Part shown: positions 1 through 30,387 of the stretch, in pieces
Layout: each line of letters starts with the position of its first letter
How positions within the stretch are numbered: position 1 is the first letter of the stretch
Assembly (NCBI GenBank): GCA_021081985.1
Contig: GCA_021081985.1_3639.1
Reading direction: 5' to 3' (one strand)
From: a phage
DNA length: 64,000 nt
Made by a program: the position numbers and the translations under genes
The notes under the pieces: generated by a model
What the model was told of the DNA's origin: nothing
What the model saw: only the letters and a program-made list of their open reading frames with translations
Database searches by the model: none

Positions 1-528
1 GTTAATGGGCTTATCAAATAATCTAAATCATGTATATGACCATACCCATTTGTATGCCATTCAGCTAATTCTTTTGGTAGAATTTGAGTTAGTGAGACGT
101 GCTTACTAAGGATACCAGCGAGAAGATCACGATGGCTACTAACCACTCCACTTGGTTTATTAGCGTTTTCTTTAGTAAACTCATCGGCAGTTTGTTCTAA
201 GAATCCCGTAATATCTGCAAACAGCTTCCCTTTACCTTCCCTAACGTTATCACGAGTTTTACGATATTCAATATAAGCCCGTGCAGCATTCTTGAGGTCA
301 AGATCCATTAGTGAATCTTCCACAATGCGGTGAATATCACAAACAGCCACTTTCTCTTGTGGTGGTTCTGATTTTTCCAGAGTTCCATAGACTTGCTCGC
401 CAACTGCACACGCCAGAGGATATGATTTCTCACCATAACCAGCAGCAATCAGAGCAGCTTCTGCCGCTCTAATAACTTTCACACCATCATAATCTTCTTC
501 ACGTCCATCACGTTTAACAACTTTCATT
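1..528 (-). CDS. nrdD: anaerobic ribonucleoside-triphosphate reductase NrdD, N-terminal part (gene runs off window start)
   Basis: Minus-strand translation from ATG at 528-526 reads MKVVKRDGREEDYDG...ARAYIEYRKTRD...ENANKPSG...HRDLLAGI...HDLDY with no stop before position 1; matches the class III RNR N-terminus pattern from memory. Not in ORF track because truncated. Confidence 0.8.
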
Positions 529-832
529 GTTTATTCCCCAGTTCAGTATTAATAAACGCAATAAATTCATCTGCCGTACCAACATACACAGTATCGACAC
601 CGCACTCATAGAAAATCCGTGGGACTGTTTTTGGGATAACAGGGGAGCATTTTAAGACCAATTCCTCTTTGGTGAAGTCTTCTCCTAATTTCTTATAGAT
701 AAAGTTAAGTCCTTTTTGTTTTGCAAACTCTTTTGCTCTTACACAATGAGGGCAATTATCTTTTCCATAAATTAAAAACGTGCATTCTTTAAAGTTCATC
801 TTAAAAATCCCAGATTTCTTCTTCTGCATCAT
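524..832 (-). CDS. glutaredoxin/NrdH-like redoxin
   Basis: 102 aa with CPHC active-site motif (GKDNCPHCVRAKEF); sits between nrdD and nrdB. True start may be the internal Met at 799 (MNFKECTF), 2 nt after the nrdB stop. Confidence 0.65.
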   Translation of the reverse strand: MMQKKKSGIFKMNFKECTFLIYGKDNCPHCVRAKEFAKQKGLNFIYKKLGEDFTKEELVLKCSPVIPKTVPRIFYECGVDTVYVGTADEFIAFINTELGNKQ

Positions 833-1889
833 TCACTGTGGTGTTAACACGATAATCTGTGTTAGACATTTCTTGGTTAGCCGTCTGCTGTAGCGCAGGA
901 TTCATCCATACTTGCATAAACGGCAAAGGGTCTTTGGAAGGAGGGTTGAAGTCTCTATCAAATCCAAAATGATCATAGATAGGAGAACAATTATAGTCAA
1001 CCCACTCTTTCAGCAATGGTTCGTTAAGGCCAATGATTGCTCTACCATCACTGAAGATATAGTGACTCCAACTATACTCTTTTAATCTAACTTCGTCAAG
1101 AATTTCTTTCAATTCATGTTTGATGGCATTAAAGCTGTTCAACCATACAGGGTCTTCTAACAGAATTTCAATAATTGCCAAGTCGTTCTTTGTGTGGAGA
1201 ATCTCATCAAGCATTATTTTTTGCACAAGTTGTGCCACTTGAACAAAGATCCCTTGTTCAGCCAGGGCAAATGTGCACGCAAAACTGGATATGAACTCTA
1301 TAGCTTCTAGGCCAAGCAGAGCAAACATAGCTCTCAGAATGCCTCTACGGGCTTCTTCTTTATCTATAGAAGCAGGATCCAGTCTGTATTTAGCACCAAG
1401 AACTTCTAGTTCACGCATATATTTGACAATGACACCAGATCTGTTTAAAACTTCTTGGTTGTTTTGTACTTCTTCAATAATTTCTCGTGCATTTGGCAAA
1501 CACTGTCTGACAATTTCTGAGTATGTCAAAGCATGAAGCACTTCGATTTCTGCCTGTTTCATCATCAAAGCGTATAATTCACTGTTTGTGATGAATGGGG
1601 CAAATAAACAGATAATTGATTGCGCTGCAACACTATCAGCTTCCCATTGCCACATCAAAGTTTGCACCATAACATCATAGGTTGATTTACTGCATGTGGC
1701 AAAATCTGAAATTGATTGTACTAAATCAACTTCGTCTTCTGACCAGTCTTGCTCTTTTTGTTTTTTATACAAATCGAAAAGTTTTGGGTATTTTTTATTA
1801 ATGGAGTCATACATCCCCATCTGCTGACCAAGAAACAGAGGGTAATCCCCAGTTTTATGTGCTGTGTTTTCTGTATTGAATAATGCCAT
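801..1889 (-). CDS. nrdB: ribonucleotide reductase small subunit NrdB (class Ia)
   Basis: 362 aa; di-iron/tyrosyl-radical R2 pattern; adjacent to nrdA; GAGG RBS upstream. Confidence 0.85.
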   Translation of the reverse strand: MALFNTENTAHKTGDYPLFLGQQMGMYDSINKKYPKLFDLYKKQKEQDWSEDEVDLVQSISDFATCSKSTYDVMVQTLMWQWEADSVAAQSIICLFAPFITNSELYALMMKQAEIEVLHALTYSEIVRQCLPNAREIIEEVQNNQEVLNRSGVIVKYMRELEVLGAKYRLDPASIDKEEARRGILRAMFALLGLEAIEFISSFACTFALAEQGIFVQVAQLVQKIMLDEILHTKNDLAIIEILLEDPVWLNSFNAIKHELKEILDEVRLKEYSWSHYIFSDGRAIIGLNEPLLKEWVDYNCSPIYDHFGFDRDFNPPSKDPLPFMQVWMNPALQQTANQEMSNTDYRVNTTVNDAEEEIWDF

Positions 1890-1929: not shown

Positions 1930-4653
1930 TTACAATGCACAACTCTCGCAGTACGGATCTTCAACTGAACTATCTGCAATCAAAGGATAGTTCTTTTTAG
2001 TTTCTTCCTCAGCTTGTTTCTTCGCGTGAAGTTCCGCTGTCAAGGAATCACCAGCACCAACCTTAGAATTTAGATAGTACCACGTTTTCATACCCACTTT
2101 TGTTGCTTTGATAAGATATCCTAACTGCTCTTTCATAGAAATCTTACCATCTTTTTGTTTGGTGTAATCAAGGTAGAGATCTGCACTGATCGCCTGCCCA
2201 GTAAATTTCTGGAACAGGGCATAAATATCTATCAGATCATTTGTTGGTGTATCCCAAGCAGATGTGTAGTAATCTTTTAATTTTTCATAATCAGGAACGA
2301 TAAAAAGAACCTGACCTTGAGGTGATTTTTTAAAGATTACATGATCACGAACAGGGTATATACCGTTTGTTGTGTTTGTTGCCAAAGACGAACTTTCGTT
2401 CGGCATGTAGGCTTCCAACACACTGTTTCTGATCCCGCCAAAATCAACAATCTCCTTGCGTAAGGACTCCCAATCCTGTTTGAGTGTAGGATCCTTCACC
2501 ACACTATCAATCGTTTTGTTGTAAGTATCAATCGGTAGCCAGCCAGATGGGTATTTTGTTTTACCAATCCACTCACAAACACCACGTTCTTTAGCTAACC
2601 GTAGACTTGCCTTATGAAGGCTGTAGCTGTGCAATTCAGCTAAATCATGTACCAACTGTTTGCTCTCAGGAGAACCATAAGGAACTCTATGTGTCGCAAT
2701 ATAATGCGCCACGTTTGTGATGCCAACACCAATAGACCTACGTTTTTTAACTGTACTCTCCATATTTTCATACGGATAGGTCATGATATCCATCACGTTG
2801 TCAATCATGAGTACGGTATAGTATGCCACATCTTCATACTCTTCTTGTTTAACTCTGCCAGCAACCAACGATGCTAGGAAGCATAAAGCAACTTCACCAT
2901 CTTCAGCATCATGCTCGAAAATGTTACGCATGTCTGAATAGCCTTTTGTTGGAAGAGATATTTCTTGGCACTGCCCAGTTAGCAAGCCATTAAACACTCC
3001 CATATGGCGTTTTGGCTCAGAAAAACAGTAGGTGTCGTCAATACGCCCATGGTCTCTGATCTCAACAACAACTTCTTTTTGTCTGGCTACCGTGTTTTGG
3101 TCTGGCAAGTTTAATTCAATAAGCTGATCCCCAACTTTTAAATCACAAGCCATTTTCTCCAACGGGTTATCTTGTAAATAAAACCTGTGATAGGGGGTAC
3201 AAGTAAGCTCTTTACCTGTACTCGTCACTACAGTAATGAGTTTCCTATTACTACCTGTTTTTCTGACAATAACCTCTGACCACTCTTCTCCATTCCACAC
3301 CTCAACAATACGATCTTTAAGGTCGGAAATGGTTTGATACCCATCCTTAGTGAGAATTTTCGTTTCTGGCGCAACACACAAATTGCTTGAATAAATAATT
3401 TCCTTAAATGGGGTGTGTCTATTCATCTCGTCAGTCCAGTAAACATAAAGTCTACCAGTTTCTGTACGCTGGGTAATTATCTCCATTGCCAAATCTCTTG
3501 CCTTAATCCAAGTTTTTGGAATAGAAGCATCCTTGGCAATCTTATCAACTTCAGAGTCAAACTCCTCCATTGTCATAGTGAACATCCCATCATGGAGTTG
3601 TGGGGCATCTTTATAAGATACCAGCATCCAATCTAGGTTTTTCGCAACACGATTGACAAAAGATTTGTTAATACCAACGGAATAATCCATTGTGTTAATT
3701 CGCTTAGATGTCACAGTCATAGGGTTACGTAAGCGAATTAATTCATCAATTTGTGGATCAAGAGCTAAGAAAGAAACTGTTGCTGAACCACCTCTGGACT
3801 GTTGCCTATTTTCTTTTACCCCAGCATCAATACCACGATAATAAGGTAGTTTACCCATATGCTTGATTGTGTTTCCTCTAACACCATCACCAATAGAGCG
3901 AGATGCTAGATAATAACCGATACCAGCTTGATTAACAGTCATCGTATATGCAACTTCTCGTGCAACACCGATGGACTTAGCTGTATCGTCTGCCTTAATT
4001 ACACAACACGAAGCATATCCTGTTTTCCCGGTACGAAGCCCGTTAAGGTATGGTGTCGGGGCGTTGATCTTAAGATCAGACAAATATGTGTACAATTTTG
4101 TCACATCTTTAATACGACGAGCCTTGGGCATATTCTTCATAACTGCCATTGCCATCCCCATAAACATCATCTGCGGGGATTCAAAAAGGATGTCATTAAC
4201 AGCGTCCTTAATACCGTACTTATCACGGAACTGTTTCAATACAGCATACCCATAAGACAGATCTTTACTATGGTCGATAACAGCTTCTAATGCTGTTAAC
4301 TCCAAGCCTGTGTATTTCATATCTTCCCAATAGCCTGAATCAACCATACGGTGATAGAAATTTGGCAAACTTGGGATTTTTGTGAACCCACCAAAGGCTT
4401 CTTTATAAATCTGCCCGACTAAAACTCTACCAGCCATCCGTGCATGTGCTTCATCTTTACGGCTAATACATGCATCTATAATAGCTTGGTTCACTTCTTT
4501 GGTTGTGCAACCATCATATAGTCTTTTATATGCGTCAAGAGCAATGTGTGACCAGTTGCCGTTGCCATCATCACCAAAAATGGCAGCTTTGTTAAGGCGT
4601 TCAGGGTCGAATACTACCTCTGACCCATCGCTTTTAATAACTTTAGTAATCAA
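1930..4653 (-). CDS. nrdA: ribonucleotide reductase large subunit NrdA, interrupted by a mini-intein
   Basis: 907 aa; active-site SSNL-C..QEISLPTK matches the E. coli SNLCLEIALPT region once residues 426-561 are removed; remaining extein about 770 aa. Confidence 0.85.
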   Translation of the reverse strand: MITKVIKSDGSEVVFDPERLNKAAIFGDDGNGNWSHIALDAYKRLYDGCTTKEVNQAIIDACISRKDEAHARMAGRVLVGQIYKEAFGGFTKIPSLPNFYHRMVDSGYWEDMKYTGLELTALEAVIDHSKDLSYGYAVLKQFRDKYGIKDAVNDILFESPQMMFMGMAMAVMKNMPKARRIKDVTKLYTYLSDLKINAPTPYLNGLRTGKTGYASCCVIKADDTAKSIGVAREVAYTMTVNQAGIGYYLASRSIGDGVRGNTIKHMGKLPYYRGIDAGVKENRQQSRGGSATVSFLALDPQIDELIRLRNPMTVTSKRINTMDYSVGINKSFVNRVAKNLDWMLVSYKDAPQLHDGMFTMTMEEFDSEVDKIAKDASIPKTWIKARDLAMEIITQRTETGRLYVYWTDEMNRHTPFKEIIYSSNLCVAPETKILTKDGYQTISDLKDRIVEVWNGEEWSEVIVRKTGSNRKLITVVTSTGKELTCTPYHRFYLQDNPLEKMACDLKVGDQLIELNLPDQNTVARQKEVVVEIRDHGRIDDTYCFSEPKRHMGVFNGLLTGQCQEISLPTKGYSDMRNIFEHDAEDGEVALCFLASLVAGRVKQEEYEDVAYYTVLMIDNVMDIMTYPYENMESTVKKRRSIGVGITNVAHYIATHRVPYGSPESKQLVHDLAELHSYSLHKASLRLAKERGVCEWIGKTKYPSGWLPIDTYNKTIDSVVKDPTLKQDWESLRKEIVDFGGIRNSVLEAYMPNESSSLATNTTNGIYPVRDHVIFKKSPQGQVLFIVPDYEKLKDYYTSAWDTPTNDLIDIYALFQKFTGQAISADLYLDYTKQKDGKISMKEQLGYLIKATKVGMKTWYYLNSKVGAGDSLTAELHAKKQAEEETKKNYPLIADSSVEDPYCESCAL
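2971..3378 (-). mobile_element. mini-intein in nrdA (about 136 aa, no endonuclease domain, C-terminal Gln)
   Basis: Insert starts CVAPETKILT (block A-like), has LTCTPYHRF (TxxH block B-like) and DTYCFSEPKRHMGVFNGLLTGQ followed by +1 Cys; Cys codon at 3378-3376 checked. Confidence 0.6.
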
Positions 4654-4928
4654 ACATTCTCCTTCTCTTCTACATCATATTTAGCCAAAAATAAAGCAGC
4701 TTCATCATTAAGATCCTCTTTTAAAGAGTCTCTATCATCTGCAAGGATATTAATTACTTTTCCTGTGTATGCGTCATAATAAACATCATCATACATCTTA
4801 CTATCATCTGTAAGATCATTAAAATATAACCACCCAGCATAATGATATTTATCATCAAAACCGCGATCTTTCCATTTGGTCTTTTCTCGCGCCATTATGC
4901 CCCCAGACCAAACATATCGCCAAGCCAT
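4650..4928 (-). CDS. hypothetical protein
   Basis: 92-aa ORF co-oriented with neighbours. Confidence 0.3.
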   Translation of the reverse strand: MAWRYVWSGGIMAREKTKWKDRGFDDKYHYAGWLYFNDLTDDSKMYDDVYYDAYTGKVINILADDRDSLKEDLNDEAALFLAKYDVEEKENV

Positions 4929-5371
4929 GATTCATCTTTAGAATCAAAGTTAATATCTAAACTTTGCTTTCTTTCTCCACGCTTTGTGTATTTTCTGACA
5001 TTGACTTTTTCTGCCACAGGAAGATCGTATGGAAGATCAATAACAAATTCCATATCCTTTTCTGAATACATCTCTACATCAAGAATATCTATACCATTAT
5101 AAATTCCTGCGTATGGATAATCATTCCGCATATCACCTACAAAAATTGTTGTTTTTCTATAGGTTGATGGGAAATTGGCACAACGAACATTCTTGTTGTG
5201 TAGCATTGTAATATGCTTAGGAAGTCCATCAGCATCACTGACTTGGAATCCAATAGCATACAACGCAGCACGAAGTTGATTTTCTTCTTTAATATTAAAA
5301 CCGGGGATTGTGCGAAGAAAGTCCAGCGTCACAGAAATATGCTGTGTAGGTTTACGTTTTGTTTTTTTCAT
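4895..5371 (-). CDS. hypothetical protein
   Basis: 158-aa ORF directly downstream of a strong minus-strand promoter-like element. Confidence 0.4.
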   Translation of the reverse strand: MKKTKRKPTQHISVTLDFLRTIPGFNIKEENQLRAALYAIGFQVSDADGLPKHITMLHNKNVRCANFPSTYRKTTIFVGDMRNDYPYAGIYNGIDILDVEMYSEKDMEFVIDLPYDLPVAEKVNVRKYTKRGERKQSLDINFDSKDESWLGDMFGLGA

Positions 5372-5430
5372 ATATTCTCCACCACATTTGCAAACTAGGG
5401 GACAAATAGCCCCCTATACATCATGCAAAC

Positions 5431-5459
5431 ATAATATGTATTTTTATTAAATTTGTCAA
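5431..5459 (-). promoter_or_regulatory. sigma70-like promoter (TTGACA-17-TATTAT) on minus strand
   Basis: Minus-strand reading TTGACAaatttaataaaaatacaTATTAT; -35 overlaps the stop of the upstream gene. Confidence 0.45.
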
Positions 5460-7342
5460 CCTGCCACAACATTGTTGGGAACTAGTTGGCGGTATTGTAC
5501 CCACCCACGTAGATTTCCTGACCACATATTTCCTTTTCTATCCATATGCGTCACACCGTCACTTGCCTGTCCATCCCACCACAATGAAGCCTCATTCTCC
5601 AACATAGGTGTTGCAACATGCTCAAAAGGAGATGCGTGTACCTTATCACCACTTGTTAGCTTTTTATAGATATCAAGGGCTTTATCCTTAGTGTTGTTAA
5701 GCACGCGATACGAGACTTGTGCACAACAAGACACAGAAATAGCAATTGCCTCATCAACACGTAGCATCACAGGCTCGTTGTTCTCATCTAAAACACAATA
5801 CCCATGAAATTCTCCAACATCCTCACCAACATCAACTGTGTAGAGGTGCTCTACATATGGGGTGTGCCACTGACCAGGTTCTAATAGCTCAGGTACAGAC
5901 TCATCCACAGCTTGTTTCATGAGAGATGCTAGTTTATGGATCGTCGGGTCTGCATCTCCATCTGCACGAAGATGGAAAAAATTATTCCAATCCGTAGCAG
6001 TAACAACAGTTTTCATCCTCTGGAACGGTTCCAGTAAGCGATTTGCCACCTGCTTGTGATAGCCAGCTTGTGAGTATGCTTCGGCAAAACGTGATGCACT
6101 TAAAGCCGCCAATTGCCACCAATCCTCTGGGGAATATCCAGCATCTATTTCAGCATTGTGATTACCATCATCTTGCATACCAGGTTTATTCTTACCAAAT
6201 TGAACAGGCATGGCAGGATTTTTTCGTACTTGCTCAATCATCTTAGAGATTGGAATTGCTCTGCTGCTCATAGCATTCCTGCTAAACAGTCTATGCGTCA
6301 TAAGTTCACAGTTCCCACTGATAAATACGACACCTTCCCTTCGAACAACCACGTAGGAGGTGTCTACACTTACACAATACACCTTCCCTACATAGTCCTC
6401 ATACTCGAAGATATCTTTATCCTGCCTTAGACTAATGTAGTTCGTAACTTTAAATGAGCATTTATACAGAGAGCCATACTTACGAATATTCACAGAGTCA
6501 CCATTCAGGTGAGCTAACACCTGAATTTGGTTAATCAGTGTTTTGGATGTGGTGTTATACTCCATGTTGTCAATATTGCCGTCTGAGAGTAGCAATGCTC
6601 TCTTAAATAAGCGGTACTGCTCCTTATTTAACCCTCTGATATATTTTGGTAATTTTTTCTCCCCTTCTCCAGTGTAACATGCTTCTGTTAATGGGTTTTT
6701 ATTAAAACTGATAACTATATCGTCCCCATATATAGAGGTGCTATATTCGTATCCACACTCTTCAAGGATACGTGTAACTTCCTGTACCTTCCGAGACTTT
6801 TTAAAATGGAAGTTTGCCTTATTCCCCTTTTCTGGGGTATGTCCATCAGCAGCAAACCAAACACAAAATTCAATCTCCGCATCAGAAAGGTCACACTTTG
6901 CATTCATTACCCCAGACTGCTCGATACGTAATGTTCCATAGTCTCCTACAAGTTCCTCAGCAAGAATCGTCTTACTTACAAATTTACCCCCAGTAGTCCT
7001 TTTTTTCGTAAGGACTCGATGCTTGTCTGTAACAAGCATGGGGAACTTCTTCTTGTTCAGAGATACCATCCGATGACGACCTTCGTTCTCTATGTGTGCG
7101 GATGGGGTTACAAAGCTAATAGCTCCTGTTGTATCATCATACTGTGCTACCTTAGCATTGAGTGCAAATACTTCCCTGAAAGATCTGAACTCTGGCAATT
7201 CCGAGTTAATCTGACTGAGTATTTCTGTCTTCTCGTCAAAGCAGTGAATAATGCGGGGGTATTCCAACTCAAAAGTGGTAATTCTGATACCTTGTGGGGA
7301 AATACTGTCAGCTACGATATGTACAGAGATCTGATTATTCAT
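5456..7342 (-). CDS. thyX: ThyX-like flavin-dependent thymidylate synthase interrupted by a LAGLIDADG-type intein
   Basis: Extein junction TTFELEYPRIIH/CELMTHRLFSRNAMSSRA resembles the ThyX motif region; ANRLLEPF..TVVTATDWNNFFHLRAD resembles the ThyX R..LP..T..N.R..HF.LRAD segment. N-extein is only 33 aa and there is a long C-terminal extension. Confidence 0.55.
   Translation of the reverse strand: MNNQISVHIVADSISPQGIRITTFELEYPRIIHCFDEKTEILSQINSELPEFRSFREVFALNAKVAQYDDTTGAISFVTPSAHIENEGRHRMVSLNKKKFPMLVTDKHRVLTKKRTTGGKFVSKTILAEELVGDYGTLRIEQSGVMNAKCDLSDAEIEFCVWFAADGHTPEKGNKANFHFKKSRKVQEVTRILEECGYEYSTSIYGDDIVISFNKNPLTEACYTGEGEKKLPKYIRGLNKEQYRLFKRALLLSDGNIDNMEYNTTSKTLINQIQVLAHLNGDSVNIRKYGSLYKCSFKVTNYISLRQDKDIFEYEDYVGKVYCVSVDTSYVVVRREGVVFISGNCELMTHRLFSRNAMSSRAIPISKMIEQVRKNPAMPVQFGKNKPGMQDDGNHNAEIDAGYSPEDWWQLAALSASRFAEAYSQAGYHKQVANRLLEPFQRMKTVVTATDWNNFFHLRADGDADPTIHKLASLMKQAVDESVPELLEPGQWHTPYVEHLYTVDVGEDVGEFHGYCVLDENNEPVMLRVDEAIAISVSCCAQVSYRVLNNTKDKALDIYKKLTSGDKVHASPFEHVATPMLENEASLWWDGQASDGVTHMDRKGNMWSGNLRGWVQYRQLVPNNVVAG
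6311..7243 (-). mobile_element. intein with LAGLIDADG-like endonuclease domain in the thyX-like gene (about 311 aa)
   Basis: Starts CFDEKTEILSQ, ends VYCVSVDTSYVVVRREGVVFISGN followed by +1 Cys; internal VWFAADGH and LLLSDGNID motifs; boundary codons checked at 7243-7241 and 6313-6311. Confidence 0.55.
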
Positions 7343-9077: not shown

Positions 9078-10052
9078 TCAGATGATATTAACAAGGGTAT
9101 TAGCCATCTCTTCTTTGGTGCGGATATTACGTCTGTCACGCATAACAGATCCACAACATTCGCAACGGTAAGCCTGAAATTTTGATAGATATGTTGTTCC
9201 TACCTTACCATCCATAACTGACAAATTATCAGAATTGCATCTTACACAACGAAGTTCAACATTATCATCCGGCTCATTAAAAAGTGTAACGTTAGGATGT
9301 TTTTTCATGAAAGGTCTTACTTTAAGATAAATACCTTCCAGTGTTGGAATATCACCAATGTTATAATATTCCATTTCCTCAAATGCCTTAACATCTCCGT
9401 GGCAGCATCGTTTCCACAAAGAGATTCCTTCGTGGTGTCTTTTACGAGCCTCTAGTTGAAAGTAGTTACACGCAGCTTCTAAGGAGTTAGAAGGTAATGA
9501 AAAAGCATTCTTTAACTCTGCAAGAGTATCAATAACAATATATGGCGATGGGGGGTTCATACCATGAAAAGCAAATCTTTGGTTTGCCCATCCTTTATCA
9601 AATTTAGCATTGTGTGCAATGAAAATATCACACTCATCCAAAATGTGCCACAAATCTTCCACAAGCTCTCTGTCATCATGGATATCTGTTTTAAATGTTT
9701 CGTAGTCAGGTAATTTACTACTTAATATTGCTGGATTGTCTAACCACTTCCCTGCCCATGTCAACATATATGGCTCGCTCTCTACGTGAGACGGAGAGAT
9801 GTTTTCTTTAATTCTTCTAAATACCCAAGCCAACGTTGGTGCTACTTCCACATCACCCAGAAAAATCTTTGCCCCTGGCTTTTTAGTGAGGGTCTCCACA
9901 ATCTGTTTTGATGCCTCTGTATTCTGAGCGTGAGCTTTAAGAACTAACCTGATATGTGACTCTTTACTTTCTTTTCCCAGATACCGACGAGCTATTTCTC
10001 TGTTGCTCAAACCTTTAGACTTTAACTCTAGAATTTCTTCTGCACTAAGCAT
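9078..10052 (-). CDS. DEDDh (DnaQ-like) 3'-5' exonuclease with N-terminal HTH and C-terminal Zn-ribbon
   Basis: LSNREIARRY HTH-like; DVEVAP, IAHNAKFD and YNIGD exonuclease motifs; CVRCN..CECCGS at C-terminus. Confidence 0.5.
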   Translation of the reverse strand: MLSAEEILELKSKGLSNREIARRYLGKESKESHIRLVLKAHAQNTEASKQIVETLTKKPGAKIFLGDVEVAPTLAWVFRRIKENISPSHVESEPYMLTWAGKWLDNPAILSSKLPDYETFKTDIHDDRELVEDLWHILDECDIFIAHNAKFDKGWANQRFAFHGMNPPSPYIVIDTLAELKNAFSLPSNSLEAACNYFQLEARKRHHEGISLWKRCCHGDVKAFEEMEYYNIGDIPTLEGIYLKVRPFMKKHPNVTLFNEPDDNVELRCVRCNSDNLSVMDGKVGTTYLSKFQAYRCECCGSVMRDRRNIRTKEEMANTLVNII

Positions 10053-10264
10053 TACACCTCTCTAACAAACTCGATGATATCGTTAACAGCAAAATCACGG
10101 ACATCACCCTTGTCGATATCGTATGCCCTCATTAGCCATTGAGGTTTTTTGTGATAAGGGGTCGTTCCAAACCACATTTTTGGGTCTAAAACATTTCTGT
10201 AGCCACACTTACCTTTCCAGTTTTTATAATAAAAACGTAGAGGGTTATTCAAATCTCCAGCCAA
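10052..10264 (-). CDS. hypothetical protein
   Basis: 70-aa ORF. Confidence 0.3.
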   Translation of the reverse strand: MAGDLNNPLRFYYKNWKGKCGYRNVLDPKMWFGTTPYHKKPQWLMRAYDIDKGDVRDFAVNDIIEFVREV

Positions 10265-10544
10265 AATTATCCTCCGTCTGCCTCACAAATTCCTTCAAAT
10301 ACAAGATAATACTATCCTGTTTCTTAGTTGTTGAAGGAATGTCTAATCCAAGGTCTTGTTTTGCTCTTTCGATGATCTTTTCATTAGAGCATCTTCTTAA
10401 GAACTTTAGCATGTCATCCTTATATGAGGGATGTAAAGGGTAACTGCTAAAATCCCTCTCAAGATAATCTGCAAGGTTTCTTAATGCTGTAGACAAAGAT
10501 GTTTCTGTGTGAAGTGACACATACTTCATCCAAGCCTTCAACAC
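10245..10544 (-). CDS. hypothetical protein
   Basis: 99-aa ORF. Confidence 0.3.
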   Translation of the reverse strand: MLKAWMKYVSLHTETSLSTALRNLADYLERDFSSYPLHPSYKDDMLKFLRRCSNEKIIERAKQDLGLDIPSTTKKQDSIILYLKEFVRQTEDNFGWRFE

Positions 10545-10768
10545 GTACCCTTCGAAAGTGTTAACACACTGACTAAGGACTCCACGGCATTTCCCTTCAA
10601 AATGGTCATGATCAAGACAAGGGTTGCGAAGTGGCTCACCTAAAACAGGATCAAGACCATTCTGGTCTAAGATTAGATATTCTCTAAACTCAGCTATTTG
10701 CTTAGGATTTTTTAACCAGAGACTATCGTTGAGAGGGACGCTTACTGCTTTCTTCCTTGGCTTACGTT

Positions 10769-11398
10769 TTACTTTCTGTTGTTTTTGTCTCTTTCTTGGG
10801 ATAATTCCTCCAAGAATTTTTTACCTATTAAGTAAGCATCAGCATAATCTGATTTACCAGCAGCCAATGTAATACCATCTAACCAACCAGGACAAACACA
10901 ATCAACAGCCCGTATCATGTGTGATTTTTCCATCTTTACTTTACGAGATGAGTATACCTTTTTCCCAGTCTTTTTGTCAAGTCTTTCTTTAACTATTTCT
11001 CTATCTTTTTCTGGGAGTAAGTTTCTGGCAAAAGACTTTAGAGAAGTTGGTGGTATTTTATGTATATTATCAAGCCACTCAGGTGATTTATCACATAAGG
11101 CATAGACAATGCAATGGAACAAACCTGCCAAATCACGCGTCGCATTCCCTACAGATCCGAAACTCAAATCCTCCATCACATACTTATCTATCTTGTACTT
11201 ATCAACTAATTCCAAGATCTTTTGAACTATGTGTCTGATTTGTTCGTAGACTGTATCGTAATAAACAACATCTTTATTTTTCTTAGACCTGCTGGAGTTA
11301 GATCCTGTTCTAATCATCTCTCTATATATGGGAACACCATGCTCCCATATAACAACAGCGCAGTGGGAGATTGACTGGTCAACCGACATCAGTCGCAT
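10769..11398 (-). CDS. RuvC-like Holliday junction resolvase
   Basis: N-terminal MSVD, VMEDLSFG and SDYADAYLIG resemble RuvC catalytic D/E/D-x-x-D motifs. Confidence 0.5.
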   Translation of the reverse strand: MRLMSVDQSISHCAVVIWEHGVPIYREMIRTGSNSSRSKKNKDVVYYDTVYEQIRHIVQKILELVDKYKIDKYVMEDLSFGSVGNATRDLAGLFHCIVYALCDKSPEWLDNIHKIPPTSLKSFARNLLPEKDREIVKERLDKKTGKKVYSSRKVKMEKSHMIRAVDCVCPGWLDGITLAAGKSDYADAYLIGKKFLEELSQERDKNNRK

Positions 11399-11708
11399 CT
11401 AAACCCCCATCAAAACTTTCAACAGCCTGATCTTTAAATAAAACTAAACCACATTCTAAATCACCATGCAACACACTTGTCAGAAGAACTAGTCTTTCTC
11501 CTTCTACCAACTCACAATCTTCTAAAATCTGTGCAGCAAATATTTTATCCTTGTTTATAAAATCATCCTTAAAAAGGATATGATCACCATTCTCATCTTC
11601 TACTAATTTCCACTGCCCTGTACCAACCAAGAACTTCGGTTTCAAAGACGATACAGAAAGTGCTTGGGTGTCCCTCATCACAGCTTCTATAATCATCACA
11701 TCTATCAT
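11379..11708 (-). CDS. hypothetical protein
   Basis: 109-aa ORF. Confidence 0.3.
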   Translation of the reverse strand: MIDVMIIEAVMRDTQALSVSSLKPKFLVGTGQWKLVEDENGDHILFKDDFINKDKIFAAQILEDCELVEGERLVLLTSVLHGDLECGLVLFKDQAVESFDGGLDATDVG

Positions 11709-12838
11709 AGTACCCCTACCCTTTTCAATTCTGTTGCTAGTGTTGTTTTATCATTGGGGTGTCTTTTCATGTAAACCATCTGGAAAATTACAGATGCCCA
11801 TTGACCAGCACTCATCTTTTTAAGGCTTCCATCCCAAGATGTAAATTCAACCCCGTTTGGAAACCATGCCTTATACTGGTCAACAATTGCTTCCCACATC
11901 TCTTTTTCTGTTCCAAGATGCCCGATCAAATTGAATGCCGCAGTATCCCCAAATCTTCCGTTTATATCAAAACACTGGTATGGTTTAATATTGTCAGAAA
12001 TATCACCACAAAGCATCTGATAACCGAAGAACTTTTTGCCCCAGCCTTTAACCTTATTACCTTCCATCCATATTTCACCCATTGAGTCATCAATCAGCAT
12101 TGGGGTTGGATGTTTCCACTGCTTCTCTCCGTTATCGCGCATCGTATCAAATAGCAGACCTGGTGTTCCTTTCTGATCCTTATCGAAGGATGCTATCAGG
12201 AAATTAAACTTACCTGTCTTCTTATAATTTTCCCACCCTGTGTACATTAGTACGGATAAGTAATCATCTGCTTCAACACCATTGATGACTTTTGCATTGT
12301 ACTTCTTCTTAACGTAATCTCGCGTTTCCTGTAAAAGCAACGGCCTGAGTAGATCTTCCCTATTACCTTTATATCTTTCTGGGGCAGGAAGCATAAGACG
12401 GAAATTATTCTCGCCACCAAGAACACCAACACCTTGCTTGCTACTAATTTCAAGATGATCAAAAATAGCATTGATCTTCATTTTGAGAAGATGAAGGCAA
12501 TTCTCAACAGGCTCCGGTGTTTGGATATCCTCAACAAGGAAGTCTTCCCTCGTCCAAGGTGTAAATGATTTTCCTGCGGCCTTTGCTTTCATTTCCATAT
12601 TGGCATTTTGGTCTTTTAGCCAACCGCCTACAACTTTTTTGGTTGATCCCCAAAACTCTGTGCGATTACGAAACTCTTTAGATTTCCCAGATTTAATATG
12701 CGTCGCTCGGATGGTTCTTTTTTCAGAACCAGCAGCCGATACGTAACATGTTTGATCTAAATCTAAGACAATTACACAATCATTTGTGATTTTATCTTTC
12801 CAGTTTTTATCGTATGGATACCCCACAACACCTCTCAA
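11705..12838 (-). CDS. flap endonuclease / 5'-3' exonuclease (RNase H-like)
   Basis: GVEADDYLS and LCGDISDNIKPY motifs typical of phage FEN/RNase H enzymes. Confidence 0.65.
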   Translation of the reverse strand: MRGVVGYPYDKNWKDKITNDCVIVLDLDQTCYVSAAGSEKRTIRATHIKSGKSKEFRNRTEFWGSTKKVVGGWLKDQNANMEMKAKAAGKSFTPWTREDFLVEDIQTPEPVENCLHLLKMKINAIFDHLEISSKQGVGVLGGENNFRLMLPAPERYKGNREDLLRPLLLQETRDYVKKKYNAKVINGVEADDYLSVLMYTGWENYKKTGKFNFLIASFDKDQKGTPGLLFDTMRDNGEKQWKHPTPMLIDDSMGEIWMEGNKVKGWGKKFFGYQMLCGDISDNIKPYQCFDINGRFGDTAAFNLIGHLGTEKEMWEAIVDQYKAWFPNGVEFTSWDGSLKKMSAGQWASVIFQMVYMKRHPNDKTTLATELKRVGVL

Positions 12839-26045: not shown

Positions 26046-26121
26046 GGCCCCTTAGCTCAGTGGTTAGAGCAGGTGACTCATAATCGCTTGGTCGCTGGTT
26101 AAAGTCCAGCAGGGGCCACCA
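26046..26121 (+). tRNA. tRNA-Met (anticodon CAT; could also be Ile2 or initiator)
   Basis: Manual cloverleaf: acceptor GGCCCCT/AGGGGCC, D-arm GCTC..GAGC, anticodon loop cTCATaa, T-arm GCTGG..CCAGC, encoded CCA. Confidence 0.75.
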
Positions 26122-26173
26122 AATGTGGCACACGAAATAAACTAGGTTTATTGTTTTCGGAGGAGAAAACTTA

Positions 26174-26497
26174 ATGGCTAAGAAACAGTCTGCTAAAAAG
26201 GTATCAGCTATCGAGGCGATCAAGCAACCTTTTCAGTTTGAATCAAAATCCACGCAGACACATTCTGCACCGCACGATGTGCGTCTTGGTGGCAAAACGC
26301 AAACTGTAGCAGTTCTGAAAAAACGCAAAGATGAAGACGGTAATACTGAAATGTATTATGAATCTGTGTCTCGTGTCATTGGTGGTGAAGTGATTTCTGC
26401 TTCCTATCGTATCCGTACTGGGAAAACAAAGCGTGAACGAGAAGTGAAACAGAAAACAAGCACTCCTGTAGGAAACGTTAAGAAAACTAAAAAATAA
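26174..26497 (+). CDS. hypothetical basic protein
   Basis: 107 aa, Lys-rich; GGAGGAG RBS. Confidence 0.35.
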   Translation: MAKKQSAKKVSAIEAIKQPFQFESKSTQTHSAPHDVRLGGKTQTVAVLKKRKDEDGNTEMYYESVSRVIGGEVISASYRIRTGKTKREREVKQKTSTPVGNVKKTKK

Positions 26498-26573
26498 TTT
26501 ACTGACGAGAGTGCCACCGTGAGCCAGCGTCATTAAACAAAGGGAATCACGGACATTCAGGAGGGTTGAGATT

Positions 26574-26765
26574 ATGATAGGATCTTTGCTTAAGATTGCA
26601 AGCGATGTAACAACAACGGCTGTTGAAGTGACTGCTGCGGTAACAACTCCGTTTGTTGATTTAGCATCAGATGCTATAGCAGCAGCAGACGAGATGATTT
26701 TGTCACCGACATCTGATCTTGTCCAAGATCTTTGTGATTCTATAAAAGATGCTGTAAAAGATTAA
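26574..26765 (+). CDS. hypothetical small acidic protein
   Basis: 63 aa; AGGAGGG RBS. Confidence 0.3.
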   Translation: MIGSLLKIASDVTTTAVEVTAAVTTPFVDLASDAIAAADEMILSPTSDLVQDLCDSIKDAVKD

Positions 26766-26773
26766 AATTTTTC

Positions 26774-26802
26774 TTGACATAGTTTTTGTTTTTCTGTATA
26801 GT
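26774..26802 (+). promoter_or_regulatory. sigma70-like promoter (TTGACA-17-TATAGT)
   Basis: TTGACAtagtttttgtttttctgTATAGT upstream of the ORF at 26839. Confidence 0.5.
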
Positions 26803-26838
26803 TACTTTATCAAAGCTAATTTACATAGGAGAGATTGA

Positions 26839-27486
26839 ATGTCTACTAAGATTTCCGTAACTCGTGCACTTGCTTCTATCTCTAAGATTGAAGATAAGAT
26901 CAATAAGCGCATTTATAACCTTGAATGTATTAAGATTGCAAAAGGAACTGAGAATAATTGTAAGATTCCTGGTTATATCGGCTCTGTTGATGATTTTAAG
27001 AAATCTGCGATCAACGACTATCAAAGTCTGCAAGACCTCTTGGCAGTTCGCGATGAACTGAAGGCAAAAATTGTCAAGTCTAATGCTGAGACAATTGTCA
27101 AAATTGGTAAGGTGTCTATGACAGTTGCTGAGGCAATCGAACGCAAACGGACGATTTGCTTTAAACAAGAGTTGTTAAACAAACTTTGTGCACAGCGTGC
27201 TTCTGCACAGCTTCTTCTGGCAAAAGAAGAAAAATCTCTGGAAGATAAACTTGAAAATGCCAGAGCGCCATATATCCAACGTGATAAAGCGCCAGATGCA
27301 GAGCAGATTAAGACTGTGGAAGCTCCCATTCGAATGATGAACACACCATCGGTTGTGGATCCTCTTGAACTGGCTTCTAAGATTCGTTCTCTTGAAGAAG
27401 AGATTGAAGATTTCTTGTCTAACGTTGATTTTGCGTTGTCTGAGTCAAACGCTAAGACAGAAATTGAGATTGAGCACTCTCTCTAA
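26839..27486 (+). CDS. hypothetical coiled-coil protein
   Basis: 215 aa; heptad-like charged stretches; AGGAGAG RBS. Confidence 0.4.
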   Translation: MSTKISVTRALASISKIEDKINKRIYNLECIKIAKGTENNCKIPGYIGSVDDFKKSAINDYQSLQDLLAVRDELKAKIVKSNAETIVKIGKVSMTVAEAIERKRTICFKQELLNKLCAQRASAQLLLAKEEKSLEDKLENARAPYIQRDKAPDAEQIKTVEAPIRMMNTPSVVDPLELASKIRSLEEEIEDFLSNVDFALSESNAKTEIEIEHSL

Positions 27487-27520
27487 AAGGCTCTGATAAT
27501 ATCATTATCGTTCCTTTGTT

Positions 27521-27733
27521 TTGAAATTTAAAACATTGCTTTTGATTAACGAAGTTTACATCATCTTGCCTCCTGGGGATTGGAGGTTAAATATTCCCCA
27601 CCATGTATCGTATATGTATGAGGATAATACAGAACATAGATGCAGCGAGGCACACGAAGATGCTTTGTTGTTTCCACTAAGTAAAAGTTCATACAATAAA
27701 GGTCAATGGTTAAATGTGAAAGATGAAACTTGA
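27521..27733 (+). CDS. hypothetical protein
   Basis: 70-aa ORF. Confidence 0.25.
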   Translation: MKFKTLLLINEVYIILPPGDWRLNIPHHVSYMYEDNTEHRCSEAHEDALLFPLSKSSYNKGQWLNVKDET

Positions 27734-27851
27734 AAGTTGACTCTTGAAAGATAAAATTTCGTTTATCATCTGAAATCCTTGACACAGGTTATGGCTCACA
27801 AGATATGGTCTGTAAAGCCTCAAGGCTGTTAATCGGAAGCAATGTCTTATT

Positions 27852-27926
27852 GCTCGTATAGCTCAACGGTAGAGCACCTGCCTTGTAAGCAGGGGGTTGC
27901 AGGTTCGAAACCTGCTGCGAGCACCA
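27852..27926 (+). tRNA. tRNA-Thr (anticodon TGT)
   Basis: Acceptor GCTCGTA/TGCGAGC, D-arm GCTC..GAGC, loop cTTGTaa, T-arm GCAGG-TTCGAAA-CCTGC, CCA encoded. Confidence 0.75.
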
Positions 27927-27928
27927 AT

Positions 27929-28025
27929 GCTGGGTAAGCCCTTTGGCAAGGGCGAGGATTTATAATCCTGAAAATAGACGGGCTAGCCGTTGAATACATA
28001 GGTGGTTCGATTCCATCACCCAGCC
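27929..28025 (+). ncRNA. atypical tRNA-like element (97 nt; intact acceptor, D- and T-arms, aberrant anticodon region)
   Basis: Acceptor GCTGGGT/ACCCAGC, D-arm GCCC..GGGC, T-arm GGTGG-TTCGATT-CCATC, but about 46 nt between D- and T-arms with two hairpins and no encoded CCA. Confidence 0.3.
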
Positions 28026-28226
28026 ACAAGTTTGTTTTATAGTGTATTAGCTTATATTATTCGATATAAATGCCTGATCAGCATTTGTTGTGAATGAGGC
28101 ATACAATGCGTGAGAAAGCTATCGGTGCGCAACGTTGATTTCAAACGTAGTCATGCTCGTAGAGCACCAACTGTGGAAGTTGGAGGGTGGTTGAGTAACC
28201 ATACACTATAAAGCATTCTTTAAAAT

Positions 28227-28311
28227 GGGCGGTGTCCCCACACAAGTCTTCTAAACTTGTACTTAAAAAGTGGGAAGGAAGTGAGAGGTTCGATTCCTCC
28301 ACCGTCTACCA
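28227..28311 (+). ncRNA. atypical tRNA-like element (T-arm, acceptor and CTTCTAA anticodon-like hairpin but no D-arm)
   Basis: GGTTCGATTCC T-loop, acceptor GGGCGGT/ACCGTCT plus ACCA, hairpin CAAGT-cttctaa-ACTTG; does not fold as a canonical cloverleaf by hand. Confidence 0.3.
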
Positions 28312-28387
28312 GATTAACCCCAACTTGAGAATCGTCAGCGCGGCTCGTAAGACCCACTCTATAGGTTCTCTACCTGGGGTGCTTATT

Positions 28388-28464
28388 GCACGGTTGCCGG
28401 AATTTGGTTACGGGTCTGTCTGCAAAACGGATATATGTCGGTTCAAGTCCGACACCGTGCTCCA
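28388..28464 (+). tRNA. tRNA-Cys (anticodon GCA)
   Basis: Acceptor GCACGGT/ACCGTGC, loop cTGCAaa, T-arm GTCGG-TTCAAGT-CCGAC, CCA encoded. Confidence 0.7.
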
Positions 28465-28501
28465 AACTTTCAATTTCTTGGCAAATATGTTAAAATACCA
28501 C

Positions 28502-28530
28502 TTGACAGATATGTTTTTATTTGATAATAT
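28502..28530 (+). promoter_or_regulatory. sigma70-like promoter (TTGACA-17-TAATAT)
   Basis: TTGACAgatatgtttttatttgaTAATAT upstream of ATG 28551. Confidence 0.45.
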
Positions 28531-28550
28531 CATTAAGTGGGGTTTTTAAA

Positions 28551-28898
28551 ATGGCTACTAAGCAGCTTACAAAACGTAGAAGAGGAAAAGGTCGTCCTCT
28601 GAAAGAGGAATCTAATGCAATTCAGTTAGAGAAAAATATCCTAGATTTGAAAACGAATCTGATTGCAATGATTCCTGAAGCTCATCAGGTTCTTAGGGAT
28701 TTGATGAAGAATGTGAATACAAAAGACAATATCAGAGAAAATATCGCTCGTTATGTTATTGAGAAAGGTGAGCAGATGCTTTCTGATTACTTTGATGAGG
28801 AAAACGAAGAGTTACTCGAAAAAGATAACTCAGAAAAAGCGCCTATTAAGGCAGCCAAACCATTCTCGACGGATATTGTTCAATTCAAACAAGGTTAA
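28551..28898 (+). CDS. hypothetical protein (start at internal ATG of track ORF 28521..28898)
   Basis: MATKQLTKRRRGKGRP...; promoter-like element immediately upstream. Confidence 0.35.
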   Translation: MATKQLTKRRRGKGRPLKEESNAIQLEKNILDLKTNLIAMIPEAHQVLRDLMKNVNTKDNIRENIARYVIEKGEQMLSDYFDEENEELLEKDNSEKAPIKAAKPFSTDIVQFKQG

Positions 28899-28899
28899 T

Positions 28900-28989
28900 G
28901 TGTCGTTAGACCGTAGGGGTAGCGGGGGAGACTGTAAATCTCCTGTCTCGAAAGGGACTCGGGTAGTTCGACTCTATCACGGCACACCA
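28900..28989 (+). tRNA. tRNA-Tyr (anticodon GTA), long variable arm
   Basis: Acceptor GTGTCGT/ACGGCAC, loop cTGTAaa, variable-arm hairpin GTCTC-gaaa-GGGAC, T-arm GGTAG-TTCGACT-CTATC, CCA encoded. Confidence 0.7.
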
Positions 28990-29057
28990 ACTAAATCTGT
29001 ACTGGCTTTGATGTGTGACGATACCCTCCAATCGTGGTTGTTGGGTCAGTACAGTTT

Positions 29058-29133
29058 GGGAGTGTAGATCAGTTAGTAGATCGCTCGACCGATAATCGAG
29101 AGGACGTAGGGGCAGAGCCTACCACTCCCACCA
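29058..29133 (+). tRNA. tRNA-Ile-like (anticodon GAT) with non-canonical T-loop and C33; possibly degenerate
   Basis: Acceptor GGGAGTG/CACTCCC, D-arm GATC..GATC, loop ccGATaa, T-arm GTAGG-GGCAGAG-CCTAC. Confidence 0.4.
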
Positions 29134-29138
29134 AATAT

Positions 29139-29213
29139 GCATCCATAGTTTAATTGGGAAAACTACAGCCTTCCAAGCTGAAGTCGAGGGTTCGATGCCC
29201 TCTGGATGCTCCA
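29139..29213 (+). tRNA. tRNA-Gly (anticodon TCC)
   Basis: Acceptor GCATCCA/TGGATGC, D-arm GTTT..AAAC, loop cTTCCaa, T-arm GAGGG-TTCGATG-CCCTC, CCA encoded. Confidence 0.65.
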
Positions 29214-29338
29214 GTTAAAAGATGTCAATGAAATCCGCTTGGGTCAACTGAAGACCGTAACAAATTCCATGGGGTTGTGTTTGCGGTCCAACCCTAGACA
29301 TCTTCTATCTTTAGTAGAAGGCTTTAATACGGACGAGT

Positions 29339-29569
29339 ATGATGGTTTCTAAATTAATCATAACAAGGCATCATAATGCTAAAGAAATAGAGATTGTGAA
29401 TGCTGCTGGCACTCTTGTGCTAAAAGTTGGTAAAGACTGTCCTTTTGAATTGTGCCAGAAGGAACTTTTAAGTTTGTGCGGTTTCAGGTTTAAACAGATT
29501 ATCTTTGAAAATGCTTTTCAATATTCAGACTTAAACCAGTACATTATATCTAGGCTTGATCCTGCATGA
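29339..29569 (+). CDS. hypothetical protein embedded in tRNA array
   Basis: 76-aa ORF. Confidence 0.3.
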   Translation: MMVSKLIITRHHNAKEIEIVNAAGTLVLKVGKDCPFELCQKELLSLCGFRFKQIIFENAFQYSDLNQYIISRLDPA

Positions 29570-30123: not shown

Positions 30124-30129
30124 TTTTTA

Positions 30130-30211
30130 ATGAGAGTAGCGTAACTTCACTGGGTGAAGGCTGGCCTCCAAAACCAGTGACTAAGAGGTTCGATTCCTCA
30201 CTCTCGTGCCA
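30130..30211 (+). tRNA. tRNA-like gene, possible tRNA-Trp (anticodon CCA), irregular D-region
   Basis: Acceptor ATGAGAG/CTCTCGT, loop cTCCAaa, T-loop TTCGATT, CCA encoded; D-region forms a tight 6-bp hairpin instead of a normal D-arm. Confidence 0.35.
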
Positions 30212-30212
30212 A

Positions 30213-30288
30213 AGGGGATTAGCATAGTGGCCTAATGCAACGGGCTTTGACCCCGTGATCGGTTGTTCGAATCAACCATCCCCTGCCA
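30213..30288 (+). tRNA. tRNA-Gln (anticodon TTG)
   Basis: Acceptor AGGGGAT/ATCCCCT, D-arm GCAT..ATGC, loop cTTTGac, T-arm GGTTG-TTCGAAT-CAACC, CCA. Confidence 0.75.
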
Positions 30289-30297
30289 AGTTAAAAC

Positions 30298-30387
30298 GGA
30301 GAAGCAAATCGATTGGCGACGAAACCACATTGGAAATGTGCTGACTGGTAAAACGGCTTGAGAGTTCGATTCTCTCCTTCTCCACCA
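30298..30387 (+). tRNA. tRNA-Ser (anticodon GGA), type II
   Basis: Acceptor GGAGAAG/CTTCTCC, loop tTGGAaa, T-arm GAGAG-TTCGATT-CTCTC, CCA; variable arm pairs weakly. Confidence 0.5.

Follow-up and report, generated by a model that had tools for sequence, protein, structure and literature searches.

The nrdA gene in the phage DNA analysed here (the window, a stretch of 64,000 nt) contains an in-frame insert of 408 nt encoding 136 aa. This insert is very probably a class 1 mini-intein of the ribonucleotide reductase (RNR) family, located directly N-terminal to the thiyl-radical cysteine; that it splices we infer by homology. Earlier work already covers inteins at the RNR radical cysteine, their mini-intein derivatives and Gln termini, and has demonstrated the chemistry in relatives. 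What is new here is an unannotated, ordinary member of a large known intein family. The nrdA product, intein included, is 907 aa long with a TTG start. It contains Pfam Ribonuc_red_lgC (4.3e-96) as well as Ribonuc_red_lgN and ATP-cone, and a phmmer search against PDB matches it with E. coli R1 (E = 1.8e-128) in two stretches, which correspond to R1 residues 7-440 and 438-741. An identical 907-aa protein is already public as MCD4172522.1, under the name "hypothetical protein [Escherichia coli]".

Table 1. Features of the nrdA locus in the window, with the evidence for each.
Feature	Position	Strand	Basis
nrdA precursor gene, class Ia RNR alpha subunit	1930..4653	minus	ORF list, Pfam, match to E. 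coli R1
Coding part of the N-extein (aa 1-425), up to …IIYSSNL	3379..4653	minus	aligns with E. coli R1 7-440
Predicted mini-intein, HINT splicing domain only, Cys1…Gly135-Gln136	2971..3378	minus	comparison with TH18, AF2, Foldseek, family search
Block B T61-P-Y-H64 (TxxH), preceded by near-invariant Cys60	3187..3198	minus	codons read; family conservation
Short linker D93-QNTVARQ-K101	3076..3102	minus	alignment with ICP1, PhAER-4, P0006, P0007, P0012 and P0014 inteins
Blocks F and G, D114-DTYC118FSEPKRH125MGVFNGLLTG-Q136	2971..3039	minus	residue conservation in the family
Cys+1, first C-extein residue	2968..2970	minus	TGC read directly; aligns with C439 of PDB 4r1r
Coding part of the C-extein (aa 562-907 and stop), starting CQEISLPTK	1930..2970	minus	aligns with E. 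coli R1 438-741
Region of higher divergence relative to the intein-less allele, directly 3' of the insertion site	2840..2970	minus	substitution counts

In translation, the insert and its junctions read SSNL/CVAPETKILT…FNGLLTGQ/CQEISLPTK (a slash marks a junction), with Cys1 encoded by TGT (3376..3378) and Gln136 by CAG (2971..2973). The first-pass annotation had described an NrdA about 136 aa longer than standard, with an extra segment between SSNL and CQEISLPTK that starts with CVAPETKILT, carries a TxxH block and ends in GLLTGQ. All of these elements are present in the sequence where it had placed them, and the excess length is exact (907 aa versus 771 aa in the phages vB_EcoM_TH18 and FV3). 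Its placement of the segment at the catalytic cysteine also holds, since the +1 Cys aligns with Cys439 of E. coli R1. Cys+1 is the thiyl-radical cysteine of the RNR and is predicted to act as the splicing nucleophile as well; in the same alignment, N424, C562 and E564 of the window NrdA correspond to N437, C439 and E441 of R1. Compared with the canonical form of block G, the +1 Cys is present, but Gln replaces the terminal Asn and Gly replaces the penultimate His. Each of these replacements is known from functional inteins (PMC4031507) and is usual in the family, but the motif departs from its canonical form. At the penultimate position (G:6) and at block F:13, a His usually aids C-terminal cleavage of inteins. 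In the window copy, the residues of blocks F and G are Cys at F:4 (Cys118), His at F:13 (His125), Thr at G:5, Gly at G:6 and Gln at G:7.

The insert is polymorphic among closely related phages. In the phages nearest to the window, the vB_EcoM_TH18 group, nrdA is 2,316 nt long, which is the window gene minus exactly 408 nt, at 96.4-96.6% nucleotide identity; the N-extein is collinear with the intein-less TH18 NrdA, and the FV3 NrdA likewise lacks the insert. Over these 2,316 nt the window and TH18 genes differ by 83 substitutions (3.6 per 100 nt), and 20 substitutions fall in the span from -3 to +131 nt relative to the junction. Bins of 100 nt outside this divergent stretch mostly hold 0-6 substitutions, with one further bin holding 10. 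The stretch looks like a recombination or co-conversion tract. When FV3 serves as the outgroup, it shares the window's base at 8 sites of the tract, that of TH18 at 9 and neither base at 3. On these counts the tract does not tell gain of the intein in the window lineage from loss in the TH18 lineage. With the endonuclease absent, the route by which the element entered or left this lineage is something we only infer. The intein DNA gave no match in complete E. coli genomes. Neighbouring ORFs were inspected for a free-standing homing endonuclease; the two small ones upstream of nrdA (4650..4928 and 4895..5371) are each matched by an ORF of equal size in the corresponding place beside the intein-less TH18 gene.

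The fold of the insert is that of a HINT domain. An AF2 model built with a 42-sequence alignment has a pLDDT of 94.4 and a pTM of 0.87 (single-sequence AlphaFold gave a pLDDT of 37 and was unusable). In a Foldseek search against PDB, the 50 top hits are all HINT proteins (inteins, BIL or Hedgehog domains), and the TM scores to solved mini-inteins range from 0.75 to 0.84. The hits include Ssp and Npu DnaB, Mtu RecA, NrdJ-1 and gp41-1, and also the Pab and Pho Pol II intein structures. By sequence, the insert matches solved inteins weakly. Moreover, Pfam Intein_splicing gives it 26 bits, below the curated cut-off of 35.8, and Pfam alone would miss the intein. The 136-aa insert has no Pfam hit to an endonuclease domain and is modelled as a single HINT domain, in agreement with the earlier remark that the endonuclease is lacking.

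Used alone as the query in an exhaustive HMMER scan of 1.84 billion representatives, the insert has 1,785 protein matches at E≤0.001, of which 1,155 reach E≤1e-10 (a word-indexed protein search gave just 4 relatives). With 1,785 matches to the insert alone, it is not a chance feature. In tblastn, 323 phage records match, including the annotated ICP1 intein (E=5e-24), and the N-terminal half of the annotated phiCbK intein matches the window intein as well (E=3e-14). Among the delimitable relatives, SNL is found at positions -3..-1 in 122 of 143 and Cys+1 in all 143. Across 144 sequences, window included, four residues never vary (Cys1, Thr B:7, His B:10, Cys F:4; 144/144 each), and Cys B:6 (135/144), G:6 Gly (135/144), G:5 Thr (127/144) and F:13 His (92/144) come next; at B:12, 123 of the 144 have Phe, as does the window copy, and 20 have Trp. 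Assignment to class 3 inteins, which bear the WCT triplet, was rejected on definition: Cys1 is invariant, B:12 is Phe, and only Cys F:4 and Thr G:5 fit. The mini-intein reading proposed in the first-pass annotation is supported by the precise absence of the insert from TH18, more than 1,000 homologous inserts at SNL/C, the HINT model and the intact catalytic blocks.

According to PMC2677866, inteins in class I/II RNRs occur most often at the site of the radical cysteine. An allelic set labelled "RIR1-l" in InBase groups bacterial and phage inteins with the iridovirus RIR1 intein (PMC1635734), and the phiCbK genome paper ties the phiCbK intein to that of Chilo iridescent virus (CIV, IIV-6; PMC3556154). 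Our use of the RIR1-l label for this exact site rests on the former together with this phiCbK/IIV-6 link.

The Gly-Gln end had been called atypical. This is correct for inteins in general, but it does not hold within the family, where most of the 144 sequences (85) have Gln as the terminal residue (G:7) and the other 59 have Asn. The TGQ/C ending is common to Vibrio phage ICP1, Aeromonas phage PhAER-4, Curvibacter phage P26059A and the mini-intein of Ralstonia phage RSF1. For phiCbK, our translation of JX100813 reads …LTGN/C whereas the paper says "Gly-Gln" (PMC3556154), and phiCbK is not counted as a Gln example. On a neighbour-joining tree the terminus switches between Gln and Asn at least 34 times, versus 45.7 with shuffled tips; with short sequences and a noisy tree, this is to be read only as many switches. 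Gln-terminated inteins, including one from an RNR, splice experimentally (PMC4031507). The RIR1 intein of CIV is, like that of the window, a large-subunit RNR intein with a C-terminal Gln, and in the account that PMC4031507 gives, citing Amitai et al. 2004, it splices with its native Gln and does so better than with Asn. It differs in being a full-length intein from a eukaryotic virus, and for its homology to the window intein we rely on statements in two papers (PMC1635734, PMC3556154); two other insect iridoviruses have mini-inteins allelic to it. Pol II of Pyrococcus abyssi, P. horikoshii and Methanoculleus marisnigri also contains natural mini-inteins that end in Gln, and measurements show Gln-dependent splicing for them (PMC4031507, PMC8229266). 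However, these are archaeal, sit in another host protein and retain a His before the terminal residue (His165-Gln166 in Pho Pol II), and they splice slowly with Gln and better with Asn, contrary to what is described for the CIV RNR intein.

The inteins of ICP1, PhAER-4 and P26059A share with the window copy the NrdA host, the SSNL/C site, the CVAPET start, the G[IL]LTGQ/C end and the F:4 Cys, with 55-59% identity across the splicing domain. Only that of ICP1 is annotated (an "intein" mat_peptide in HQ641347), whereas its PhAER-4 and P26059A equivalents are unannotated. They are longer than the window intein (325-332 aa) and contain a central LAGLIDADG endonuclease domain (Pfam LAGLIDADG_3, E = 3e-17 to 2e-10), in whose place the window intein has a linker of 9-10 aa. 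Full-length LAGLIDADG inteins of this kind are the nearest relatives, and their alignment with the window copy shows a clean gap of ~190 aa, with the linker D93-K101 at the spot of the endonuclease domain. Ralstonia phage RSF1 and Burkholderia phage FLC6 have endonuclease-less NrdA mini-inteins of ~139 aa at the same site, also in GenBank without intein annotation. The RSF1 copy reads SSNL/CVAPGT…FNGVVTGQ/CLEV and is Gln-terminated like that of the window; nevertheless, these two are only 44-46% identical to the window intein. Because the window intein is closer to full-length members than to other minis on a distance tree, these sequences suggest that its endonuclease was lost independently. 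The ancestor was probably an intein of ~325 aa with a LAGLIDADG homing endonuclease, a domain since lost, and owing to this loss the intein would now spread only via ordinary recombination between co-infecting phages.

Both the intein and its exteins are under purifying selection. Between the exteins and those of TH18 the dN/dS is 0.058, with 64 synonymous and 14 non-synonymous codon changes. Between the intein and a variant of 88% identity it is 0.23, and the changes are concentrated in the linker (7 amino-acid differences at residues 93-99), with none in blocks A, B, F and G. In a 27-member public 90% cluster, the 15 sequence variants examined are all 907 aa long and identical in frame and at both junctions. 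The purifying selection on intein and exteins and the retention of both junctions in the 15 variants suggest that the intein is active.

These data bear on three other explanations of the insert. It might be a splicing-dead relic, in which case nrdA would effectively be a pseudogene and the phage would depend on the host RNR or its own anaerobic NrdD. The missing canonical His-Asn at the terminus, the Intein_splicing score under threshold and a homing endonuclease already gone, which is the stage preceding decay in the homing cycle, are all in keeping with such a relic. Yet all nucleophiles and the block B Thr and His are intact, GQ is the majority ending in the family and occurs in widespread phage lineages such as ICP1, and the strong purifying selection on the exteins, the dN/dS of the intein, its unchanged conserved blocks and the frame and junctions kept in 15 variants also argue against decay. 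We therefore consider a dead intein quite improbable. That the insert is instead a lineage-specific surface loop or accessory domain retained in mature, active NrdA has nothing in its favor but the open reading frame, and can hardly be credited at all: the insert sits in the finger loop between the equivalents of N437 and C439/E441, has a HINT fold in the model, is homologous to annotated inteins and is absent from a functional-looking allele of 96.6% identity. The loop had been named as the alternative that alignment could reveal, and the alignments do not show such a segment kept in unspliced NrdA proteins.

A different question is whether the intein, if it splices, might follow a class 3-like route, in which Cys118 of block F rather than Cys1 takes the N-extein first. 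The family does carry a near-copy of the "WCT" triplet, in that F:4 is always Cys, G:5 is mostly Thr and B:12 is nearly always Phe or Trp, and in the class 3 MP-Be DnaB intein, partial splicing persisted after Trp at B:12 was changed to Phe (PMC2807308). However, the class is defined by absence of an N-terminal Cys or Ser nucleophile and mostly has Ser or Thr at +1 (PMC2807308), whereas Cys1 and Cys+1 are invariant here (144/144 and 143/143); Cys at F:4 is itself ordinary, being the second commonest residue there in class 1 inteins (PMC4031507). Such a route thus seems very unlikely.

By homology to the relatives, a class 1 mini-intein at this site would act as follows. NrdA would be translated as a 907-aa precursor, in which the 136-aa HINT domain parts N424 (the Asn437 equivalent) from C562 and E564 (the Cys439 and Glu441 equivalents), and because the active-site residues are split in this way, the precursor would not be catalytically competent. 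Cys1 would undergo an N-S acyl shift, helped by Thr61 and His64 of block B, and the thioester would then be handed to Cys+1. Gln136 would cyclise instead of the usual Asn to release the intein, and an S-N shift would restore a normal peptide bond, giving a 771-aa NrdA that reads …SSNL-CQEISLPTK….

A phage glutaredoxin is encoded two genes downstream of nrdA (524..832). Splicing could in principle be redox-gated, with a reversible disulfide among Cys1, Cys60, Cys118 and Cys+1, four cysteines that would lie close together at the splicing centre, which holds the precursor unspliced until it is reduced by the cell or by this glutaredoxin, and with slow Gly-Gln cleavage as the rate-limiting step. 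We regard this as unlikely; if true, the intein would be a switch on phage dNTP synthesis and not a neutral parasite.

A correct annotation of this locus would list a mature NrdA of 771 aa and an intein of 136 aa, on a contig flagged as phage. As a compact mesophilic mini-intein from an E. coli phage, with Cys1, Cys+1 and a Gly-Gln end, it is a candidate tool and a model for Gln cyclisation without a penultimate His. The alleles with and without the intein (~96.5% identity) are also a natural pair, from which one could learn how recombination in phage populations adds or removes an intein that lacks an endonuclease.

Pfam recognised Ribonuc_red_lgC (E=4.3e-96), Ribonuc_red_lgN and ATP-cone domains in the NrdA protein of the window, whose insert lies between …IIYSSNL and CQEISLPTK…. 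The first-pass annotation had read 2971-3378 as a mini-intein with a TxxH block and a GQ terminus, and translation of the window confirms these coordinates, the block (T61-P-Y-H64) and the ending (GLLTGQ). In a phmmer search against the PDB, NrdA residues 5-427 correspond to residues 7-440 of E. coli R1 and residues 561-870 to 438-741. In E. coli R1, C439 carries the thiyl radical, and its loop also bears the active-site residues N437 and E441. Because N424, C562 and E564 of the window protein align with N437, C439 and E441, the catalytic loop is split by the insert one residue before the radical cysteine.

Features of the nucleotide-metabolism cluster and the tRNA genes in the window
Feature	Coordinates	Strand	Evidence or remark
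nrdA, class Ia ribonucleotide reductase alpha subunit, 907 aa	1930..4653	minus	ORF and Pfam
Intein, 136 aa, CVAPETKILT…FNGLLTGQ	2971..3378	minus	translation
nrdB	801..1889		after nrdA
Glutaredoxin-like gene	524..832		after nrdA
thyX, flavin-dependent thymidylate synthase ThyX, 628 aa, with a second intein	5456..7342	minus	ORF
ThyX intein, 311 aa, LAGLIDADG motifs	6311..7243	minus	junctions RIIH/CFDEKTEIL…VVFISGN/CELMTHR
14 tRNA genes	26046..32377	plus	Met, Thr, Cys, Tyr, Gly, Gln, Ser x3, Lys, Asn, Pro, Leu, Phe

The source of the window is an E. coli phage of Vequintavirinae type. In its four nearest records (vB_EcoM_TH18, 24-2-1, 18-1-2 and 19-1-2), nrdA aligns at 96.6% identity as two segments that together cover 2,316 nt, exactly 2,724 minus 408. 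TH18 NrdA has 771 aa and the junction SSNL-CCEISLPTK; with the 408 nt removed, the window gene is collinear with it and differs at 83 positions, with 64 codons changed synonymously and 14 non-synonymously. NrdA of the outgroup phage FV3 is likewise 771 aa long. A loop shared by NrdA across the lineage is therefore rejected, since the segment is an insertion absent from TH18-group nrdA and FV3 NrdA. It is also evident that 20 substitutions between the window and TH18 crowd into the stretch from -3 to +131 nt, immediately 3' of the junction, against a mean of 3.6 per 100 nt over nrdA and 0-6 in most bins outside this stretch. The +2 residue is Gln in the window, in the closest intein relative (88% identity) and in Vibrio phage ICP1, whereas it is Cys in TH18. 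The divergent stretch resembles a tract that came along with the intein by recombination or co-conversion; in the nrdA comparison, FV3 as outgroup does not separate gain of the intein from loss.

Using the insert alone as query, we searched 1.84 billion cluster representatives and found 1,785 proteins at E≤0.001, of which 1,155 reach E≤1e-10. Element boundaries were delimited in 143 of the best 150 matches, all with Cys at position 1 and at +1 and 122 with SNL at -3 to -1; 41 are minis of ≤160 aa, 20 have 161-300 aa and 82 exceed 300 aa. Among 144 sequences (these 143 and the window intein), A:1 Cys, B:7 Thr, B:10 His and F:4 Cys are invariant; B:6 is Cys in 135, B:12 Phe in 123 or Trp in 20, F:13 His in 92 and G:5 Thr in 127. 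The GQ terminus, previously called atypical, is not so within the family: Gly-Gln is the commoner end, because G:7 is Gln in 85 and Asn in 59 of the 144 and G:6 is Gly in 135. On a rough tree, Gln and Asn interchange at least 34 times, compared with 45.7 with shuffled tips.

In sequenced phages, tblastn found the element in 323 records. The versions in ICP1 (328 aa, with an intein annotation in its GenBank record), Aeromonas PhAER-4 and Curvibacter P26059A (325-332 aa) all begin CVAPET, end G-I-L-T-G-Q/C and carry a LAGLIDADG domain, which the window copy lacks. The mini-intein of Ralstonia phage RSF1 (139 aa) ends TGQ/C, whereas the annotated phiCbK intein (JX100813, 1201..2121) translates to …VFNGYLTGN/CSEIML, a Gly-Asn end; the phiCbK genome paper (PMC3556154) gives this end as Gly-Gln. 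The ICP1 mat_peptide (HQ641347, 2507..3490) lies 6 nt (2 aa) away from the boundaries of the family; by alignment the intein is 2501..3484, CVAPET…ILTGQ, followed by CQEIFLPTK. After the 88% variant, the window intein is closest to full-length, Gln-ending inteins, and alignment with them leaves a single clean gap of ~190 aa, the missing LAGLIDADG domain, from just past L91-P92 to just before V103-V-E-I. The remaining linker, DQNTVARQK, is the most variable segment between both known variants of the mini-intein.

AlphaFold on the single sequence was unusable (pLDDT 37), but a rerun with a 42-sequence mini-intein alignment gave an all-beta domain (pLDDT 94.4, pTM 0.87) with lower confidence only in the linker region, residues ~91-100. 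The top-50 Foldseek matches in the PDB are all HINT-domain proteins (E-values down to 1.9e-8), including the Ssp DnaB, Npu DnaB, Mtu RecA, NrdJ-1, gp41-1, Npu DnaE and Pab/Pho Pol II inteins as well as BIL and Hedgehog domains, with TM of 0.75-0.84 for the mini-inteins. By sequence, Pfam Intein_splicing scores 26 bits, below its cut-off of 35.8, and matches to solved inteins are weak (TvoVMA, E = 3e-4; PhoCDC21-1, E = 3e-3). The mini-intein reading is thus supported by insertion polymorphism, family homology and the HINT fold.

The nucleophiles and the block B pair are all intact. The extein dN/dS against TH18 is 0.058; that of the intein against the 88% variant is 0.23, with blocks A, B, F and G unchanged. 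The identical 907-aa sequence has been deposited from an 80-kb contig as MCD4172522.1, under the name "hypothetical protein [Escherichia coli]". It falls in a 90% cluster of 27 proteins; the 15 listed are uniformly 907 aa long, their junctions do not differ, and all changes within the intein are conservative. Unspliced NrdA should be inactive, with the insert standing between N437 and the pair C439 and E441; as nrdA is maintained, the window intein probably splices. It would most likely proceed as class 1 inteins normally do, with Gln undergoing cyclisation at step 3. According to a review (PMC4031507), a terminal Gln leaves the mechanism unchanged; it reports slow splicing with Gln for the Pab and Mma Pol II inteins, and better splicing with the native Gln than with Asn for the Chilo iridescent virus RNR intein. 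The Gln end is typical of the family and already explained. A class 3 mechanism, raised by the F/W-C-T pattern, is rejected as membership, given the invariant Cys1. At residues 60, 66, 118 and 134 of the window intein, the family shows a nearly invariant Cys beside the block B Thr (Cys60, 135/144), B:12 Phe/Trp, the invariant F:4 Cys and G:5 Thr; this set partly mimics the class 3 "WCT" signature, yet Cys1 and Cys+1 are kept. That four active-site cysteines would make splicing conditional on redox state is very improbable.

The ThyX intein lies just before the RHR motif, and its penultimate residue is likewise Gly. FV3 ThyX (327 aa, RIIH-SELMTHR) has no insert, and TH18 thyX, at 1,890 nt, is of the long form. 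In TH18 (9720..12367) the annotation divides nrdD, the anaerobic RNR gene, into three separate pieces, and in FV3 (4942..6036) an HNH endonuclease gene comes after nrdD; the window equivalent would fall beyond coordinate 1. This state of nrdD suggests that mobile elements have interrupted the nucleotide-metabolism cluster of related phages at other points too.

Among class I/II RNRs, the position before the radical cysteine is described as the one where inteins occur most often (PMC2677866). "RIR1-l" allelic inteins are known from bacteria, phages and iridescent viruses, with allelic mini-inteins in two iridoviruses (PMC1635734), and the phiCbK intein has been linked to that of IIV-6 (PMC3556154). 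This intein copy is in no record of a 50,697-genome phage collection, where the best tblastn identity is 59%. The window element shares host protein, site, fold, terminus and signature residues with the described family and is new only in detail: it lacks an endonuclease, it occurs in an E. coli phage of the Vequintavirinae, and its public copy is unannotated.
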